Positions 45,472-55,000 of a stretch of DNA of 64,000 nt are shown here, piece by piece (within the stretch, counting starts at the first letter, position 1; every line of letters begins with the position of its first letter). The position numbers were made by a program, and so were the translations under genes. Below the pieces are notes generated by a model. It saw only the letters and a program-made list of their open reading frames with translations, did not search any database and was not told the DNA's origin. This stretch comes from Candidatus Aenigmatarchaeota archaeon (GTDB taxonomy: Archaea; Aenigmatarchaeota; Aenigmatarchaeia; CG10238-14; SpSt-28): the NCBI GenBank assembly GCA_039000725.1, contig JAWBNO010000001.1:23616-87615 (forward strand), given 5' to 3'.

Positions 45472-48400
45472 TTAAGCTGGTTCTGCTTCGGCTTTTGGAA
45501 TATCTTCAGGTAAACCTTTCCTTTTTCTAATTGATTTAATTACTTGATCCCTTAGCTCATTTGGTAATTTTTCAAATACTATATCTATTAGGCTATAGAA
45601 ACCTCTCCCGCTAGTTAAAGACTTTAATTTTGCGTCAAAACCGAAAAGCTCACTAACAGGTACCTTAGCTATTAATGCCATGTTATCTCTTTCTTCATTC
45701 ATTTCTAAAATATTTCCTCTTCTATTTTCTATTTCTCTAGACACTATCCCCATATATTCGTTTGGTATATCAATTCTCAAGATTTGTTTTGGCTCTAACA
45801 AAGTTGCGTCTGAAAGCAACATAGCCTGCCTTATAGCATATCTGACTGCTGGCATTATCTGTCCTGGGCCTCTATGAACAGGATCTTCGTGTAGCTCGGC
45901 ATCTACCAACTTAACTTTTAATTTAATACATGGCTCTCTAGCTAAAGGACCATCTTCCATAACCTCTTTAAATGCGTCTTTAATCATTTCCATAACTTCT
46001 ATCAAAAACTGAACTCCCTTGGTTAAATCTATAAAAACGTTTTTGTTATAGATTAGCTTAACATTATATGCGTCTTCATGATTCATTCCGGCTTTTTCTA
46101 AAGCTTGGAATAGCTCGACGTTTTTCTTTTTAACTTCTATATTACTCGGTATGGTTCCTTCCCTCATTGCTTCATAAACACTATCTTCTAAAGGTTCAAT
46201 GATAAAGTAAAGTTTATTGTGCTTATTTGGTGACTTTCCTTCAACCATAGGTGATGGTTTGAATATGGTTTCTCTATAAACTACTATTGGTGGTGACATT
46301 TCAACATCAATACCCATATCTTTAAGCTTATGCTCAACTTTAATTTCTAAATGAAGTTCTCCCAAACCAGAAACTAAGTATTCTCCAGTTTCTTGATTGA
46401 TTTTAACTAATAGTGTAGGATCTTCTTTTCCTATCTTTCTCAAAGCATCAACCAATTTTGGTAAATCCATCGGATTTTTTGGTTCTATTGCCTTTGTAAC
46501 TACAGGATCAAACAAATGTTTAATTTCGGCAAAAGGCTCTATAGGATATTCTGCATCACAAATTGTTTCTCCTGTAAATGCTTCTGGTATACCGACAATT
46601 GCAACAACATTACCTGCGGTTACTTCCTCTACAGGAATTCTATTTATTCCTTTAAATATAGCTACTTGCTGAACTCTCTCCTTTCTTTTAGAATTAACAA
46701 GTAGAATTTCCTTACCTTTAAATATTTTTCCGGAAAATATTCTAGCTGTAGCTACAAAACCTACATGCTCATCTGGAATCATTTTAGTTACTATAGCAGC
46801 TAATTTACCATTAGCATCACAAGTCAGCATTTGTTTTCCAATCTCACTTTCTATATCTCCTCTCCAAATTTTTGGCACTCTGTATTTTTGGGCTTCTATT
46901 GGGGATGGCAAATGTCTTACAATCATATCTAAAACTACTCTATGCAAAGGTGCTTTTTTTGCCAACTCTTCTTCTCTACCTTCTAAAGTGAGTTGAATTA
47001 CTTCTTTTAATGTAACACCACTTTTTTGTAAAAATGGTATCGATACTGCCCACCTTTTAAACGCACTTCCTATTGCAACACTACCATCTTTAACACTTAC
47101 TAACCATTTATCCTTAAATTCTTCTGGGCAATGTTTCTGAATTAAAACATTAACTTCTTTAATAATTTTTTCAAATCTTTCCATCATTTGTTCTGGTGTT
47201 AATTTAAGCTCTTTAATCAATCTATCTGTCTTATTAATAAAAAGAACAGGCTTAACATATTCTCTCAAAGCTTGTTTAAAAACTGTCTCTGTTTGTGGCA
47301 TTATTCCTTCTACAGCATCAACCAAAACTATTGTTCCGTCTGCTGCTCTCATTGCTTTAGTAACATCTCCACCAAAATCTACGTGTCCGGGAGTATCTAA
47401 AAGATTAATTAAGTAATCTTTACCTTCATATTCGTGAACCATGCTAACGTTTGCCCCATAAACTGTTAATTGTCTTTTTCTTTCTTCAGGATCGAACCAA
47501 GTATACATAACTTTTCCTGCCATTTCTTCTGCAAGCATTCCTGCTCCAGCCATTAAATTGTCAGTTAAAGTTGTATTATGAATAAAAATACCATTTGCAA
47601 TAAAATTATGAGTTTTTTCTACAGTAAAATCATAAACATATTCTTCATTCTTAACTTTTCTAATTTCTGAAATTTCTAAAGCAATTACAGGATTTTCTGA
47701 AATTTGAATAAAAGAATTTAAATTAAAAATTTTACTAATACTTGCGTTTTCATACAATTTTAACAAGCTTTTCTGTTTATATTCAACATCAAAGTTTATA
47801 AAATTCAAAAATTTTTCCAAATCTTTTCTTCCAGAAATACTTAGAGAATATTCTTTAAACACTTTTCCATTCAACCTAACATCTTTTTCTCTTATATAAG
47901 AAAGACAACCAAACCTTAATAATAATAATTGAAGATTTCCTACTGCTTTTTCACTTGCAGATGAAATACTAACTTTTTGATGCACAAAACCGTCTGTATC
48001 AAAATACCCTTTAATAAAACTCGAAACAAAAATCTTAGGTAAATTGAACAAAATCGTTGGAATTTTTAGATTTCTTGCTTTTGCCTTTAACGGATAATCA
48101 AATAACTTATTTAATAAAAACTTTAAAGTGAATCCACCATTTATATATACACGCGGACATTTATTTTTGTACTTTCTTAAAGAACATGTAATTCCTAACA
48201 CTTTTTCAGAAATTTCTTTAACTCTATTAATTAAAAATTCGTTTTTGTTATCAAAAGTTAGATTAACACTTCCGTCTCCAAAAAGTAAACCCAACAAGTA
48301 AAAAAATTCTTTAAATTCACTTTCATTTTTCGGTAACTTAATTTTTTTTGAAGTCCTAGCTCCAAATCTCCTTAGGTCTTTCCTATAGGATAAATATGCT

Positions 48401-49137
48401 ATGTTATTATAAACATCAGCAAGTTTTATTCCAAAAAGTTTAGCAATTTTTACTAAGTCTGCTAACCTATATCTATTTTTCCAAACACCATGATAAAACG
48501 AAAGCATAGGAATTTTGGAATTTATTTTCTCCCATACTTCTCTTCTACCATAATTAATTATTTTTTGATGTAAAGATTTTCCAAAATCTTCAAATAAATA
48601 AGCTAAAAAACTGTAATCTTCTGACAATCTTTCCAAGAATTTTTCTTTTATGGTATCTAAATCCATTGAGGAATTTGGTATGATTGCTGGAAGAACTATT
48701 TTATCACCAATTCTCAAATTTCTTGCTTCAATCTCAACAATTTCACCATTTTTTAAAATAAGAAATTTATGTTCTGGGGTAACTTTAACTTTTCTACCAT
48801 CTTTTACCTTTATTTCTAATAAGATATCATCATTTTTTATTTTCCAAATATGTGTTAGTTTGCTTTTAGAAATAGAGCCATTATTATAAGTTAAAGCATA
48901 TAATTCATCTAAAATCTCATATACTTCTTCTTTTTCATTTTTTCTCACCAACTTACCAAAATTTTTTAACATATTGAATAAGTTTTCAGCAGTTACGGTT
49001 TCTTTTTCTAAAAATATTAAAGCATCCCCACTAACACATTTTCCATGATGAACATGACTACTTGTAGCTACATTTCTAATTCTATTGGGATCTTTCATAC
49101 ATTCCATTACTCTATCAATCATCTTTTTTTCTGCCAT
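45472..49137 (-). CDS. fusA: Translation elongation factor aEF-2, interrupted by an intein in the P-loop
   Basis: 1,221 aa, made of 733 aa of EF-2 extein (DTPGHVDF, NKTD, a conserved C-terminal half) plus a 488-aa insertion after HVHHGK. Confidence 0.9.
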   Translation of the reverse strand: MAEKKMIDRVMECMKDPNRIRNVATSSHVHHGKCVSGDALIFLEKETVTAENLFNMLKNFGKLVRKNEKEEVYEILDELYALTYNNGSISKSKLTHIWKIKNDDILLEIKVKDGRKVKVTPEHKFLILKNGEIVEIEARNLRIGDKIVLPAIIPNSSMDLDTIKEKFLERLSEDYSFLAYLFEDFGKSLHQKIINYGRREVWEKINSKIPMLSFYHGVWKNRYRLADLVKIAKLFGIKLADVYNNIAYLSYRKDLRRFGARTSKKIKLPKNESEFKEFFYLLGLLFGDGSVNLTFDNKNEFLINRVKEISEKVLGITCSLRKYKNKCPRVYINGGFTLKFLLNKLFDYPLKAKARNLKIPTILFNLPKIFVSSFIKGYFDTDGFVHQKVSISSASEKAVGNLQLLLLRFGCLSYIREKDVRLNGKVFKEYSLSISGRKDLEKFLNFINFDVEYKQKSLLKLYENASISKIFNLNSFIQISENPVIALEISEIRKVKNEEYVYDFTVEKTHNFIANGIFIHNTTLTDNLMAGAGMLAEEMAGKVMYTWFDPEERKRQLTVYGANVSMVHEYEGKDYLINLLDTPGHVDFGGDVTKAMRAADGTIVLVDAVEGIMPQTETVFKQALREYVKPVLFINKTDRLIKELKLTPEQMMERFEKIIKEVNVLIQKHCPEEFKDKWLVSVKDGSVAIGSAFKRWAVSIPFLQKSGVTLKEVIQLTLEGREEELAKKAPLHRVVLDMIVRHLPSPIEAQKYRVPKIWRGDIESEIGKQMLTCDANGKLAAIVTKMIPDEHVGFVATARIFSGKIFKGKEILLVNSKRKERVQQVAIFKGINRIPVEEVTAGNVVAIVGIPEAFTGETICDAEYPIEPFAEIKHLFDPVVTKAIEPKNPMDLPKLVDALRKIGKEDPTLLVKINQETGEYLVSGLGELHLEIKVEHKLKDMGIDVEMSPPIVVYRETIFKPSPMVEGKSPNKHNKLYFIIEPLEDSVYEAMREGTIPSNIEVKKKNVELFQALEKAGMNHEDAYNVKLIYNKNVFIDLTKGVQFLIEVMEMIKDAFKEVMEDGPLAREPCIKLKVKLVDAELHEDPVHRGPGQIMPAVRYAIRQAMLLSDATLLEPKQILRIDIPNEYMGIVSREIENRRGNILEMNEERDNMALIAKVPVSELFGFDAKLKSLTSGRGFYSLIDIVFEKLPNELRDQVIKSIRKRKGLPEDIPKAEAEPA
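47575..49038 (-). mobile_element. Full-size intein with a LAGLIDADG homing-endonuclease domain inside the EF-2 G1/P-loop
   Basis: The Cys1 codon (49036-49038) directly follows ...HHGK. The intein ends ...NGIFIHN (Asn codon 47575-47577) and is followed by Thr+1 of TTLTDNL. The LAGLIDADG-type motifs are LLGLLFGDGS and IKGYFDTDGF. It is 1,464 nt and in frame. Confidence 0.85.
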
Positions 49138-49214: not shown

Positions 49215-49817
49215 CTATCTAGCTCCTTCGGCCTCTTTTTCTATTCTTTCTTTTTCTCTTATGGCGTCGCTTTTACTAGCATCGTTATTATAAGCAGCAA
49301 TAATTTCATCAACTAAGGCATCAACCATATTAGCTTTCTTACCAAATGCTTTCCTGTATGCAGCTTGAGCTATATGTCTTAAAGCTAAATCTACTCTTCT
49401 TTGTGGTGAAGTTATAACAGCTTTCCTAACTATTATCCCACCAACTTGATATGCTGCTATTTCTTCTCTTAGAGCAGCGTTTTCTAAAGCCCTAACAAAA
49501 ACTTCGAGTGGATTTTTTCCTGTAATTTCATGAATTTTGTCAAAAGCTTTTTCCACAATTTTATAAGTAGTTTGCCATCTGCCAACAACTCTTCCTGAAG
49601 TTAGAACATGTTTTTTTGATTTGTGACCTGGGACCATTAAATGAGTAATTAATCTTTCCACAATATTCATTTTTGACTTATGAAATTGGTATTTTGCATA
49701 TCTTCCGCAAGATTTTGGAATTATTTTTGGTGTTAAATTAATATATCTTTCTAAACCTGGATCTTCAACTTTAACATTATACTCCCATTTTCCAAATAAT
49801 TTAATATTCTCTTCCAT
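49215..49817 (-). CDS. rps7: 30S ribosomal protein S7 (uS7)
   Basis: 200 aa in the conserved position after rps12. It shows the typical ...ALENAALREEIAAYQVGGIIVRKAV... segment. Confidence 0.9.
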   Translation of the reverse strand: MEENIKLFGKWEYNVKVEDPGLERYINLTPKIIPKSCGRYAKYQFHKSKMNIVERLITHLMVPGHKSKKHVLTSGRVVGRWQTTYKIVEKAFDKIHEITGKNPLEVFVRALENAALREEIAAYQVGGIIVRKAVITSPQRRVDLALRHIAQAAYRKAFGKKANMVDALVDEIIAAYNNDASKSDAIREKERIEKEAEGAR

Positions 49818-49822
49818 AAAAT

Positions 49823-50245
49823 CTACCTAGCTGGCTTCTGTTTTTTACCTTTTAATATTTCACTAAGAGCGACTCCATTAACTGCTATTACTTTATACTT
49901 TATACCTACCATGCTTCCTTTAGACCCTCCTTGGCCACCACCAACTTTAGTTATTATAACTTCATCATGCTCATTAATTTTATCAATAGCCCCAACACCA
50001 GGAACATGTGCAGTAACTTGTAAATTGTTTTTAATGAGTTGAACCCTAACACATTTTGTTAGTCCAGAAGCAGGCTTTCTTTGCTCAACTGCTCTTTTTT
50101 CAATAACAATTCCCCTAGCCATTGGTGCCCCTTCTAATGGATCTTTTTTCCAAAGCTCCAAAGCTCTATACCTATAGCTAGAGCTAGACCACTTAAATTT
50201 CTTTCTATTCTGTCTTAATTTTCTACCTGCGAACTCACCCGGCAT
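49823..50245 (-). CDS. rps12: 30S ribosomal protein S12 (uS12)
   Basis: 140 aa with [20 protein letters not shown]. Confidence 0.9.
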
Positions 50246-50649
50246 TATCTAACCACCAAATTATCTATATCATAGTTCCTTTTCAAAATTTTTCTTAGAG
50301 CATTTATATTTTTACCATTCTTACCTATAACTTTACTTTTATATAAACTATCGACAGTTATTTCCACTATCTTTCTATCTTTCTCATTTCTTATTTTTAT
50401 TTCTCTTAGATTTCTCACTGTTGATTTTAAGAAATCAATAATATTTGGATTGTAATTAAATATCACAATTCTCTTTTTCATCATATTTTCTAAAGTTTTT
50501 AAGACTCCATTATTTTCAATTTTTTGATTCTCATCCAGAAGAAAGTAAACAGTATCGTCAAAAATTAAACAATCTTTAACACTTAAGTGTGTTATAGACT
50601 CGAATAGATGTATCATTCTTATTGTTTCTGTATCCAATGTAATCTCCAT
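50245..50649 (-). CDS. nusA: Archaeal NusA-like termination factor (two KH domains)
   Basis: 134 aa with the GxxG motif [16 protein letters not shown], in the canonical position between rpl30e and rps12. Confidence 0.75.
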
Positions 50650-50667: not shown

Positions 50668-50919
50668 TTAAACCTTTATTGCTATCACTGAGATTGGGTA
50701 TGGTTTTCCGCATATAGTTCCCATTTCTTTACTTCCACCTTCAAATATCTCAACTTTAACATTACTATTCATTATCATTCTCTTTACTTTTTCTGGTGCA
50801 TTATTTGAAAGAATAACCGTTTCTACTTTATTGTTTCTTATAAATTTTAAAACTTTCCTATAACCATAAACTATTTTATTCTCCTTCATCGCTTCCTTTA
50901 TTCTCTCCGCTAGATTCAT
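50668..50919 (-). CDS. rpl30e: 50S ribosomal protein L30e
   Basis: 83 aa of the L7Ae/L30e fold (IVYGYRKVLKFIRNNKVETVILSNNAP...GTICGKPYPISVIAI), in the canonical position after rpoA''. The start is uncertain because it overlaps the rpoA'' 3' end. Confidence 0.7.
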   Translation of the reverse strand: MNLAERIKEAMKENKIVYGYRKVLKFIRNNKVETVILSNNAPEKVKRMIMNSNVKVEIFEGGSKEMGTICGKPYPISVIAIKV

Positions 50920-52009
50920 GTTTACTACCTCTCACAATTAACTCGAACATTCCTGTTCCGGTTGGTACTACTCTTCCTATCATAACATTTTCGAACATTC
51001 CTCTTAATTCATCAACTTCGCCTTTAATTGCTGCTCGAGCCAGATGTTTTATCGTTTCTTCAAATGCTGCTCGAGCCAATACAGAATGTTTAGCCCCAGC
51101 AACGCCGTATCTTCCAATAGACATAATTTCTCCACTCCATGTCATTACATCAGCTACTATATATAGGTATCTCATATTGACATCTAAACCTTGTTCTTGC
51201 ATAGTTTTATAAGCTTCCTTAATTATTAAACTTCTTGCTGCTTCTATTCCAAAAAGTCTATAAACCTCATATATATCATTAGAATAGGTTTTTGTTTCAT
51301 CTACTTCTTCCATTTGTAATACTTTTTCTAAATTACTTCCGAGAGTTTGAATTAACCAATTATTACCATCATTTCTAACTACAGCAGCTGTTACACCCTC
51401 TATACCTTCAACTACTATATTTAAAATGTCGTCTTTAATTTTTTGTAAATCTGTGATATTAATGTTTTCTTTATCTTTTAATTCAACTATTATGTTTTCC
51501 TCTTTAATTTTAACCTTCACCGATTTTATCTTTTCTTCTATTAATCTAGCTATTTTTTCCATCTTTCTTTTGTCTTTAACTTCTATTAATATAGAATAAT
51601 TAAAGAGATCTATAGATACATTTTTTGATAAATCGTATACTTTTTTTTCGATTATTTTGTTTGCAAATTCTTCGGCTTTCTCTTTAGTATTCCATTCTTT
51701 TTTTAGATAAATCGTCATCATTGGTGTTTCAATCTTTTTCTTGGCATCAAATATTTCAATAAGTCTTGGTAAACCCAATGTAACCTTTATTCCCAAACTA
51801 CCAGCGATGTGATATGTTCTCATTGTTAGTTGTGTTGCCGGCTCCGAGATTGTTTGGGCTGTAAGTATTCCTATGCTCTCGCCTGGCTCAAATCTACATT
51901 TCATGTACTCCTTTTTTACTTCTTCTAGTACCATCTTTCTTTGTTCTTCGTTTAAGTTAAGTTCCTTACAAACTTTTTCTACTTCATCAAGTATTTTTTT
52001 AGGCAGCAT
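50876..52009 (-). CDS. rpoA2: DNA-directed RNA polymerase subunit A''
   Basis: 377 aa. Conserved segments are GESIGILTAQTISEPATQLTMRTYH and FEETIKHLARAAIKGEVDELRGMFENVMIGRVVPTGTG. Confidence 0.9.
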   Translation of the reverse strand: MLPKKILDEVEKVCKELNLNEEQRKMVLEEVKKEYMKCRFEPGESIGILTAQTISEPATQLTMRTYHIAGSLGIKVTLGLPRLIEIFDAKKKIETPMMTIYLKKEWNTKEKAEEFANKIIEKKVYDLSKNVSIDLFNYSILIEVKDKRKMEKIARLIEEKIKSVKVKIKEENIIVELKDKENINITDLQKIKDDILNIVVEGIEGVTAAVVRNDGNNWLIQTLGSNLEKVLQMEEVDETKTYSNDIYEVYRLFGIEAARSLIIKEAYKTMQEQGLDVNMRYLYIVADVMTWSGEIMSIGRYGVAGAKHSVLARAAFEETIKHLARAAIKGEVDELRGMFENVMIGRVVPTGTGMFELIVRGSKHESSGENKGSDEGE

Positions 52010-55000
52010 TCAAAACCCTCCTTGCTATTTCTCTAATGTTTATCTCTCCTCTCGAGAGTTTAGATGGATCTAATCCGTCTTCTCCGGGCATAAACTGTAT
52101 AATTCTGTTTGCCGCATCTCTGACTGTTCCGTCGTAAGCCACTTTTAAGTCCTGAAGTGCTCCTACCAATCTTCTTTCCATGTAACCTGAATGTCTAGTT
52201 TTTAGACTTTTATCCATTAAACTTTCTCTTGAATTCATATTATCAAAGAAGAATTCAAAAACATTTAAGCCGTCTTTATATCCTTTTGAAACAAAACCCT
52301 TAGCTGCAAGACTTTTATCCTCTAATTTAAAGTGTGGAAATGTTCTCTTATAATAACCTCTTTCTATTCTTTTTCCCATTATCATTTCCTGTCCTATTAA
52401 TGCACCAATTTGCAATAAGTTTACCATTCCTCCTCTGGAACCACACTTAATCATATCAAGAACTTGTGACGGCCTAATCGCTTTCTCGAAAACAGCTGTA
52501 ACCTCATTTACACATTGAGCGATTTTCTCTTTAATCATATTTTCTAAAAATTCTTCACTTGCCTTTCCTACTAATGTCACCAATTCGCCTTTTTTGAACT
52601 TTTCAATAACATTATTGACTTCGTGCTCGGTTTTTTCTATAATTTTTCTAATTTCCAATTTAACACTTTTGTCTATATCAAGTTCGTCTAAACCAAAAGT
52701 TAAACCGATCATGTCTAAGTAATTTATACCTAATATGGCGGTCTTGTATATAAATTCTTTTGCGAATTGTTTTCCATAAATTTTTTCTATCTTGTCTATA
52801 ATTCTTCCACCATCAGCGCTCATTCCAGTTTTTTCTATATCTCCTTCTAAAAGCTGACCGTTCTCAATTTTAACCATACCAGTTTTTCCTTTGTACTCAA
52901 TTGAAAAATCTTTAGGTAATAACAAACTAAAAACTTCTTTTCCTGTGAACCATTCTTTATTTGGAATTTCTACTTCCTGATCAATACTTCTTATAAGTTT
53001 AACAACATCTTCTCTTCTTAATCTAACACCATCTTTAGTTAATAGATATAATCCTGTTATTTCATCTCTAATAAGCCCTATAATAGCTGAAGAGTATCTT
53101 GGACTTCTTATGTTCTTTTCTACACTTGCCAATATCTCTATTTCTGCTCTAGCCTCAGCATTTTGAGGAATATGCAGATTCATTTCATCTCCATCAAAAT
53201 CTGCATTGTATGGGGTACAAACGGCAATATTTATTCTAAATGTTTGATATGGCATAACTCTTACTTTATGAGCCATCATACTCATTCTGTGTAAACTAGG
53301 CTGTCTGTTAAATATAGCTATATCACCATCTATCAAATGTCTTTCTACTATATAACCAACGTCAATTTCTTTTGCAATATCTTCTTTATTGCTATCCATT
53401 ATTTTCTTTCTTCTTCCATCCGGCTTTATAACATAATTAGCACCAGGCCAAACATTAGGGCCGTTTAAAACATACTTTCTTATTTCATCTATGTTTTCTG
53501 GAGTAACTTTAATTGGAACTGTCAATTCTTTAGCTACTACTAAAGGCACTCCAACTTCATCTACTCCTATCCTAGGATCTGGAGAAATAACAGTTCTAGC
53601 AGAAAAGTTTACTCTTTTACCTAACAGGTTTCCTCTAAATCTTCCTTCCTTAGTCTTAAGTCTTTGAGTTAATGCTTTCAAAACTCTTCCTGATCTATGT
53701 CTAGCAGGAGGAACTCCAGTTAATTCGTTATCTATATAAGTTGCTACATGATATTGTAAAAGTTCCCATAAATCATTTAATAAAAATTCTGGAGCACCTA
53801 GCTCTATATTTTCTCTAAATCTGTCGTTTATTCTAACTATCTCAACTAATTTATGTGTTAAATCATCTTCGCTTCTTTCTCCAGTTTCTAATGTTATAGA
53901 TGGTCTAACTGTTACTGGAGGAATAGGTAATATAGTAATCACAAGCCATTCTGGTCTTATCTTTATCCCAATTATATCTAAATCTTCTTTAGTAATTTTT
54001 TCTAATCTCTCTCTTATTTCTATTGGATTTAAAACTTTGTTACCTTCGACAAAAGTATATGGTTTGACAAACTTTATTTCTTTTTGTTCAGTTTTACAGT
54101 ATGGGCATTTTTTAGATATATAAGAATCTATTTTACTCCATGAAATCTTCTTTTTCTTTAATTCTTCCAACTTTTCTTTTTCTATTAATAATCTTCCACA
54201 TTTTCTACAGGTTATTCCTAATAGAAAATGAATAAATTTAGAATAGTGAGGATGTATGACTGGTTTAACTAATTCTAAATGTCCAAAGTGACCAGGACAT
54301 TCTCCTATATTTCCTCCACATACTCTACATCTCAAGCCTGGCTCTATAGTACCTAATCTTGGATCCATTATTCCTCCTTCAATTGGATAACCTTCTTCAT
54401 CATAAATATCAATTTTAGTTATTTTTGCAAACGACATCTTTGATATAATATCTGGACTTAGTATACTAAACTCTATCTTGTTGACTTTTCCTTCTTCGTC
54501 AATCACTAATTTGGGATATATAAGCATACTTTTTAGCTCATCCAACATAAGCTTAAAAGCGTAACTCATTTCAACATTTACTATTTCAGCTTTTTCTCCA
54601 TCTATTGGACAAAAATATCTGTTCTTTATTCTATCATGAACTGCAACCATTCCGCACTCCTTACAAACTGGTAAGAGTACTTTATCTGAATCGAATCTTT
54701 CTTTAAGCGTTAATACGGCACCGTGAGCAAGTAAACAGTCTTTTTCCATCTCACCAAGTCTTAATCCGCCTTCCTTACTTCTACCCTCAGTTGGTTGTCT
54801 AGTTAATAGAGTAACTGGTCCTCTTGCTCTAGCCTGAATCTTATTAGAAACTAGATGGTCAAGTCTCATGTAATAAATGCAACCAACAAATATGTCAACA
54901 GCAAATTTTCTTCCAGTTTTTCCGTCGTACATAATTTCTTTTCCGCTTTCTTTAAATCCTAATTTCTTTAGAGCTTCCCTTAGTTCTTCTTCTTTAGTTG

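Follow-up and report, generated by a model that had tools for sequence, protein, structure and literature searches.

Described fusions of the large RNA polymerase subunits

In the textbook archaeal RNA polymerase (RNAP), subunit B (or B'' and B') and the A' and A'' parts of subunit A are separate chains. The gene studied here, a fused rpoB'-rpoA', lies in a stretch of 64,000 nucleotides (nt) from the hot-spring genome of a Candidatus Aenigmatarchaeota archaeon; the whole stretch is referred to as the window. Natural fusion of both catalytic subunits has been described, as far as found, only for a few bacteria. Fused rpoB-rpoC genes (beta-beta') are known in Helicobacteraceae and Wolbachia, according to PMC7483510, which cites Lane & Darst (2010) and Zakharova et al. 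(1999). For Archaea, the variants described by Da Cunha et al. (2017; PMC5484517) are splits of subunit A and an A'-A'' fusion only: A is unsplit in Thaumarchaeota and Korarchaeota, A' and A'' are secondarily fused in Pacearchaeota, and such events are called rare there. Full-text searches of one literature library, where absence is no proof, found no paper on a B-A' or B'-A' fusion in Archaea; the original prediction for this locus had also known of none. The NCBI names of these proteins, where shown, were 'subunit A'' or 'subunit B' and never a fusion.

The fusion in the window resembled the bacterial beta-beta' fusions in that the C-terminus of the second-largest subunit was joined to the N-terminus of the largest, the genes were adjacent in one operon, and the state was lineage-wide. 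It differed in that the enzyme is of the archaeal/eukaryotic type, the chain is composed of the C-terminal half of B and the N-terminal two-thirds of A, and the state changed repeatedly within one phylum. The window protein (P0001) scored 327.6 bits versus 5372 and 308.2 bits versus 4632 with the bacterial fusion families NF007172 and NF011417, respectively, and only core blocks were shared. The fusion works like the bacterial ones, yet falls outside those families.

The same junction is present in 3QQC chain A (...RPKLNLSEGGKVIGSIEFGILSP versus ...YPKLVIDEEGKVNKIEFSILSP in the window), in which the B C-terminus, A' N-terminus, and A'' C-terminus of Pyrococcus furiosus were combined and crystallised with Spt4/5. 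However, 3QQC was engineered in the laboratory and covers an isolated domain, whereas the window contains an evolved join of full-length subunits. The split and fusion variants of archaeal subunit A in PMC5484517 also alter the number of polypeptides for the two large subunits, occur in DPANN, and can be read as secondary fusions, but they join pieces of the same subunit, whereas the window joins pieces of B and A. The events that are called rare in that text contrast with at least five changes within one phylum here. A fusion of about 1911 amino acids (aa), B-A', in another Aenigmatarchaeota lineage (P0091-P0123) has the same junction and the same type of origin (TAA ATG to AAA TTA). Its linker is 1–2 residues shorter, its origin is independent, and B'' and B' are joined as well, so that one chain carries three of the four ancestral pieces.

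Organisation of the fused ORF

The fused open reading frame (ORF) consisted of 1432 codons from a GTG at 56297, or of 1429 codons from the first ATG (56288, codon 4). The latter length matched P0273, a cluster member of 1429 aa and apparently the very protein encoded in the window. The minus strand from 54518 to 54468 read tat ccc aaa tta gtg att gac gaa gaa gga aaa gtc aac aag ata gag ttt and contained no in-frame stop. The B' C-terminus and the A' N-terminus were therefore in one frame, connected by a short linker with the spacing normal for the clade. The claim of the original prediction that B' and A' share one 1,432-codon ORF with no stop at the junction was confirmed by the sequence, the ORF list, and Pfam.

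Pfam placed Rpb2_4, Rpb2_5, Rpb2_6, and Rpb2_7 at residues 8–598 and Rpb1_1, Rpb1_2, Rpb1_3, Rpb1_4, and Rpb1_5 at residues 604–1408. The B' half was matched by NCBIfam TIGR03670 (rpoB_arch) with 868 bits against a cut-off of 811 (residues 8–601, profile positions 2–597 of 599). The A' half was matched by NF006336 with 1124.1 bits against 819 (residues 602–1430) and by TIGR02390 with 1099 bits against 1042.55 (residues 604–1423). The catalytic aspartate triad motif NADFDGD (YNADFDGDEMNLH) and the N-terminal zinc site (RCRVCGGNIGECPGHFGH) of A' were both intact in the translation. When aligned with the B' moiety, subunit B of Pyrococcus, Thermococcus, and Sulfolobus ended within about 2 residues of E601-G603, and PDB searches placed the start of A' and the end of B from the same genera within a few residues of E601-K604.

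B'' and A'' remained separate ORFs, the first sharing 17 nt with the start of the fused ORF and the second 11 nt with its end; therefore, the core enzyme as encoded is B'' + (B'-A') + A'', and the ORFs and Pfam agreed with the original prediction on this composition.

Integrity and distribution of the junction

Independent assemblies were checked across positions 54381–54620 using Logan contigs; the underlying runs belong to four separate studies of hot-spring metagenomes. Contigs from all four studies spanned the region without any insertion or deletion, and the only differences in the linker region were a synonymous GAA to GAG change at 54492 and the replacement of Asn by Asp at 54482.

A protein search was seeded on residues 380–820 of the fused ORF, which span the junction. 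The best 120 clusters each matched 98–100% of this query within one protein, with 56–90% identity over the query region. About 80 of these clusters were of ~1417–1461 aa (Rpb2_4-7 and Rpb1_1-5) and about 30 of ~1909–1927 aa (whole B and A'), the remainder being cut proteins. Their sources were NCBI, JGI, ENA, and Logan assemblies, and the named members were all metagenome-assembled genomes (MAGs) of Aenigmatarchaeota. The distance between the YAFKL and DPRLG anchors was 64–68 residues wherever both motifs were located in these clusters, and the linker length across the fused relatives always varied by whole codons.

The comparison of the junction in related genomes, which the original prediction had suggested, was made in one genome per GTDB species, scanned with a junction-spanning alignment. 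Among the best 80 loci, the junction was open in 53, with sense codons replacing the stop. Taken together, these results indicate that the window ORF is very probably a genuine, inherited rpoB'-rpoA' gene fusion that makes one chain in an Aenigmatarchaeota (DPANN) archaeon. On the genomes compared, the B'-A' fusion is clade-wide and evolutionarily labile, a large-subunit fusion of a known kind for which no description in Archaea was found.

Codon-level origin of the fusion

With the window added, the best 80 loci gave a set of 81, in which 54 were fused (45 B''|B'-A' and 9 B-A') and 27 were unfused. In all 27 unfused loci, B' and A' were in the same frame, separated by 1–3 in-frame stops and usually with Met directly after, as in L009 (...EEV*MKVDRIEF) and L079 (...NVSG*MIESIDF). 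In the codon alignment, unfused L079 had GGT TAA ATG ATA versus GGA AAA TTA ATA in fused L046. Similarly, unfused L009 had GTT TAA ATG AAA versus AAT TTG ATG AAG in L025, GAA GAA ATG AGG in L012, and GAA GAA AGA ACA in L011, all fused. In the sub-clade of the window, the junction was one codon shorter and Gly-Lys/Arg was found where the ancestral Met stood; by comparison with unfused relatives, the linker D600-K604 stands where the stop codon of B' and the start codon of A' were in the ancestor.

By this codon alignment, the fusion arose by stop-to-sense substitution in a same-frame gene pair with zero spacer, because the B' stop and the A' ATG adjoin in the same frame in unfused relatives and sense codons stand there in the fused ones. 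The ancestral layout would have been a B' stop immediately before the A' start codon. Substitutions would have replaced first the stop and afterwards the Met with sense codons, and the ribosome would read B' straight into A'. Some fused lineages, by the same comparison, lost the Met after the stop substitution. The GA-rich codons of the acidic linker residues may correspond to the purine-rich, Shine-Dalgarno-like stretch 5' of the A' start in unfused relatives (AGG AGG AGT AAT ATG in L019).

The original prediction had pointed to shifted-frame TAG and TGA triplets in aaTTAGTGAttg as the kind of trace to be expected of an ancestral stop/start overlap bridged by a 1-nt change. These triplets are present, but they lie 4–5 codons upstream of the position of the ancestral stop and are not its relics. 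The frame-bridging origin was rejected, since unfused relatives have a same-frame TAA ATG, the codon alignment places the ancestral stop elsewhere and in frame, and the substitution lies ~4–5 codons downstream of TTAGTGA.

In the unfused relatives (L009, L019, L021, L031, L047, and 22 others), B' and A' shared one reading frame, and TAA ATG without a spacer was frequent. At the same loci, the B''/B' and A'/A'' junctions, unlike B'/A', were mostly out of frame and overlapping. The locus search ranked single-segment matches highest, so that out-of-frame relatives would drop out of the best 80, and a universal in-frame rule was not adopted from the 27 unfused loci. Their uniform frame may reflect this ranking bias, or a real preference that eases fusion and re-splitting.

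Phylogenetic analysis of the fused and unfused lineages

A maximum likelihood tree was calculated from the concatenated B' and A' sequences (74 rows, 1437 columns, LG+G4, quick search). A clade of 46 rows with 100% support contained 43 B''|B'-A' rows, including the window, and 3 unfused rows (L009, L019, L021) nested inside. Within this clade, the window grouped with L002, L003, and L004, of which L003 and L004 were nearest (90% identity). Seven B-A' rows (L046, L050, L051, L064, L067, L069, L074) formed a separate clade, also with 100% support, nested among unfused B|A' lineages.

The tree required at least 5 changes between the fused and unfused states and 1 between split and unsplit B. Approximately unbiased (AU) tests, for which the groups were defined after inspection of the tree, rejected monophyly both of the 43 B''|B'-A' rows (p 1.8e-7) and of the full set of 50 fused rows (p 6e-51). 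On these sequences, at least two independent fusions are needed, that of B''|B'-A' and that of the 1911-aa B-A'. Two independent fusions followed by about three re-splits would be the simplest history.

B was unsplit, with B'' and B' joined, in one sub-clade (L046, L049-L051, L055, L062, L064, L067, L069, L074, L077-L079) nested in split-B lineages; this is apparently a secondary B''-B' re-fusion, one change on the tree. Six loci (L007, L017, L034, L058, L061, L062) were titled 'uncultured bacterium', Heimdallarchaeota, Woesearchaeota, Nanoarchaeota, or Micrarchaeota. Their rpo genes nested within Aenigmatarchaeota-titled clades, and the bins are probably mislabelled or contaminated.

Predicted structure of the joined region

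Residues 505–900 (396 residues) were modelled with AlphaFold2 from a 52-row alignment; an earlier model (290 residues, 10-row alignment) had a mean predicted local distance difference test (pLDDT) score of 49 and was discarded. The model gave a predicted template modelling (pTM) score of 0.74, with strands at residues 593–599 and 605–612, a five-residue turn between them, and block-mean pLDDT values of 85–89. The best PDB match of the model by Foldseek was 3qqc_A (E 3.5e-30, template modelling (TM) scores 0.71/0.73, 50% identity), followed by archaeal A' chains, consistent with a predicted clamp fold. The best overall PDB match by sequence was also 3QQC chain A, an engineered single-chain clamp, and this alignment ran unbroken through the junction.

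The product would be one polypeptide of ~165 kDa. In the RNAP clamp, the strand that ends B' (IYPKLVI) already lies next to the one that opens A' (VNKIEFSI), so the linker DEEGK would need only to form a turn. The modelled strands and turn, together with the 3QQC match, suggest that the join turns an inter-subunit strand contact into a hairpin-like intramolecular connection. Catalysis would be unchanged, a 1:1 stoichiometry would be enforced, and the clamp would be assembled co-translationally. The fusion may be functionally near-neutral or mildly helpful for assembly.

Alternative explanations

An alternative to a single chain is that B' and A' are still produced as two proteins, by internal initiation near the junction or by proteolysis of the linker. 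The Val598 codon is GTG in the window genome, and the original prediction had proposed it as a separate start for A'. However, this GTG was unique to the window genome and not conserved among the nine closest relatives, which had GTT (six), AGA, or ATC at this position. The sub-clade of the window has also lost the old Met, and no ATG, GTG, or TTG occurs between codon 598 and the A' core, so the proposal was not upheld. As for proteolysis, the linker of ~5 residues was predicted to form a structured turn and contains neither an intein nor a recognisable protease motif, and the junction spacing was constant to a few residues in more than 100 clusters, as expected of a structural connection. Separate B' and A' proteins from this gene were considered improbable, and the fused protein probably stays uncleaved in vivo.

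Several points nevertheless weigh against an inherited, single-chain product. The ancestral Met and the GA-rich stretch before it are kept in fused L012 (GGG GAA GAA ATG) and L030 (GAT GAA GAA ATG), and fused L025 also retains the old Met and an upstream purine-rich stretch; internal initiation may occur at the retained Met in these three. The tree left the direction, gain or loss, of individual changes unfixed. No reads were found on positions 54000–55000 in three metatranscriptome runs (X14-X16, one source study), sampled to 3–5%. In addition, the rpo gene content was read within the window.

The last point would leave room for a second, conventionally split pair of B' and A' genes outside the window that supplies the working polymerase, with the fused gene as a decaying or redundant copy. 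This was judged very unlikely: the fused gene stands in a canonical rpo operon, its catalytic and zinc-binding motifs are intact, both halves exceed the equivalog cut-offs, and identity across the clade is 56–90%. DPANN genomes are small, and their core genes are rarely duplicated. Finally, a sequencing or assembly artefact (an indel or a miscalled stop in the MAG), for which one base change at the junction would suffice in this metagenomic sequence, is hardly credible and can be regarded as effectively refuted, because contigs of the four separate studies were concordant and free of indels, the same open junction recurred in more than 100 clusters of differing assemblers and sources and in 53 species-level genomes, and the linker varied by whole codons only.

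Operon context of the fused gene

The gene order rpoH-B-A-L30e-NusA-S12-S7 is that of the canonical archaeal rpo operon. The features are listed in Table 1.

Table 1. Features of the rpo operon and of the fused ORF, in window positions; all rpo genes listed are on the minus strand
Feature	Position	Strand	Basis
rpoH (RNA polymerase subunit H), first gene of the rpo operon	57772..58014	-	Pfam RNA_pol_Rpb5_C, E 1.3e-26
rpoB'' (N-terminal half of subunit B), separate ORF, 496 aa	56281..57771	-	Pfam Rpb2_1, Rpb2_2, Rpb2_3; ORF list
Fused rpoB'-rpoA' ORF	51999..56297	-	ORF list, translation, Pfam, NCBIfam
B' moiety, residues 1 to ~601, Rpb2 domains 4-7, end strand ...LIYPKLVI	54495..56297	-	Pfam; alignment to Pyrococcus/Thermococcus/Sulfolobus subunit B
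Junction linker D600-E-E-G-K604 (gac gaa gaa gga aaa)	54486..54500	-	Codon comparison with unfused relatives; AlphaFold2
A' moiety, residues ~604-1432, Rpb1 domains 1-5, catalytic NADFDGD motif	51999..54488	-	Pfam; NCBIfam TIGR02390; translation
rpoA'' (C-terminal part of subunit A), separate ORF, 377 aa	50876..52009	-	Pfam Rpb1_5, profile positions 67-265
L30e	50668..50919	-	Pfam Ribosomal_L7Ae
NusA-like KH protein	50245..50649	-	Pfam KH
S12	49823..50245	-	Pfam Ribosom_S12_S23
S7	49215..49817	-	Pfam Ribosomal_S7

The C-terminal zinc ribbon of B' (C-x2-C...C-x2-C) has Asp in place of the fourth Cys in the window (C563-P-I-D566-G; 54600-54612, minus strand). The same Asp (CPIDG) was found in the five closest relatives of the window and His in L025, and Cys was present in 45 of 52 fused relatives. 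The ORF 3' of S7 (45472-49137, minus strand) encodes 1221 aa and occupies the position of EF-2 in a related locus, L081, where EF-2 is of 735 aa.

Other junction-spanning proteins

In a library of representatives at 50% identity, all Aenigmatarchaeota fusions collapsed to P0008, which gives no measure of their spread, and two unrelated junction-spanning proteins surfaced. P0177 (L081:4732-11376, on a Logan contig of 18.7 kb) is encoded by a 2214-aa ORF with Rpb2 domains 1, 3, 6, and 7 followed by Rpb1 domains 1, 2, 3, and 5, corresponding to B + A' + A''. Its context is of the archaeal rpo type, with S19e upstream and then S12, S7, EF-2, an XPG/FEN-1-like protein, and GatB/GatA-like genes. The protein was ~36% identical to that of the window and was a singleton in the databases searched; if true, it would represent an archaeon with the whole catalytic core as one polypeptide. 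P0201 (1665 aa; 10 contigs from JGI, ENA, and Logan) belongs to another lineage and was 37% identical to the window protein. It contains Rpb2_1 to Rpb2_7, Rpb1_1, and a partial Rpb1_2 near the C-terminus, where it may be truncated, and was named 'RNA polymerase II subunit RPB2' by one source.

Implications

TIGR03670 and TIGR02390 are used as archaeal marker genes. Here, one gene matches both equivalog models, and marker pipelines may mis-handle such genomes. Split and fusion states appear to flip easily where the genes abut in frame, with at least 5 changes in the 81-locus sample, which calls for caution in treating them as rare genomic changes, a use argued for in PMC5484517.

A bolder proposal, which seems unlikely, is that the covalent B(')-A' tether is not neutral. 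The same-frame, spacer-free rpoB'/rpoA' arrangement would then be kept because both states are used, and selection in reduced, symbiont-like cells, acting on clamp dynamics or on the assembly of the polymerase, would underlie the repeated toggling (at least 2 gains and about 3 reversals). If this were true, fused lineages would make a single-chain clamp assembled during translation, 'unfused' lineages would make some fused protein by stop-codon readthrough or fused lineages some free A' from the retained Met, and RNAP split and fusion states would serve less well as rare and reliable markers when the archaeal tree is rooted.

For the inherited B'-A' fusion itself, a natural single-chain clamp or core would be on offer for structural and biochemical work. 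A large part of an archaeal phylum encodes B'-A' as one chain, and a second lineage independently encodes a 1911-residue B-A'.

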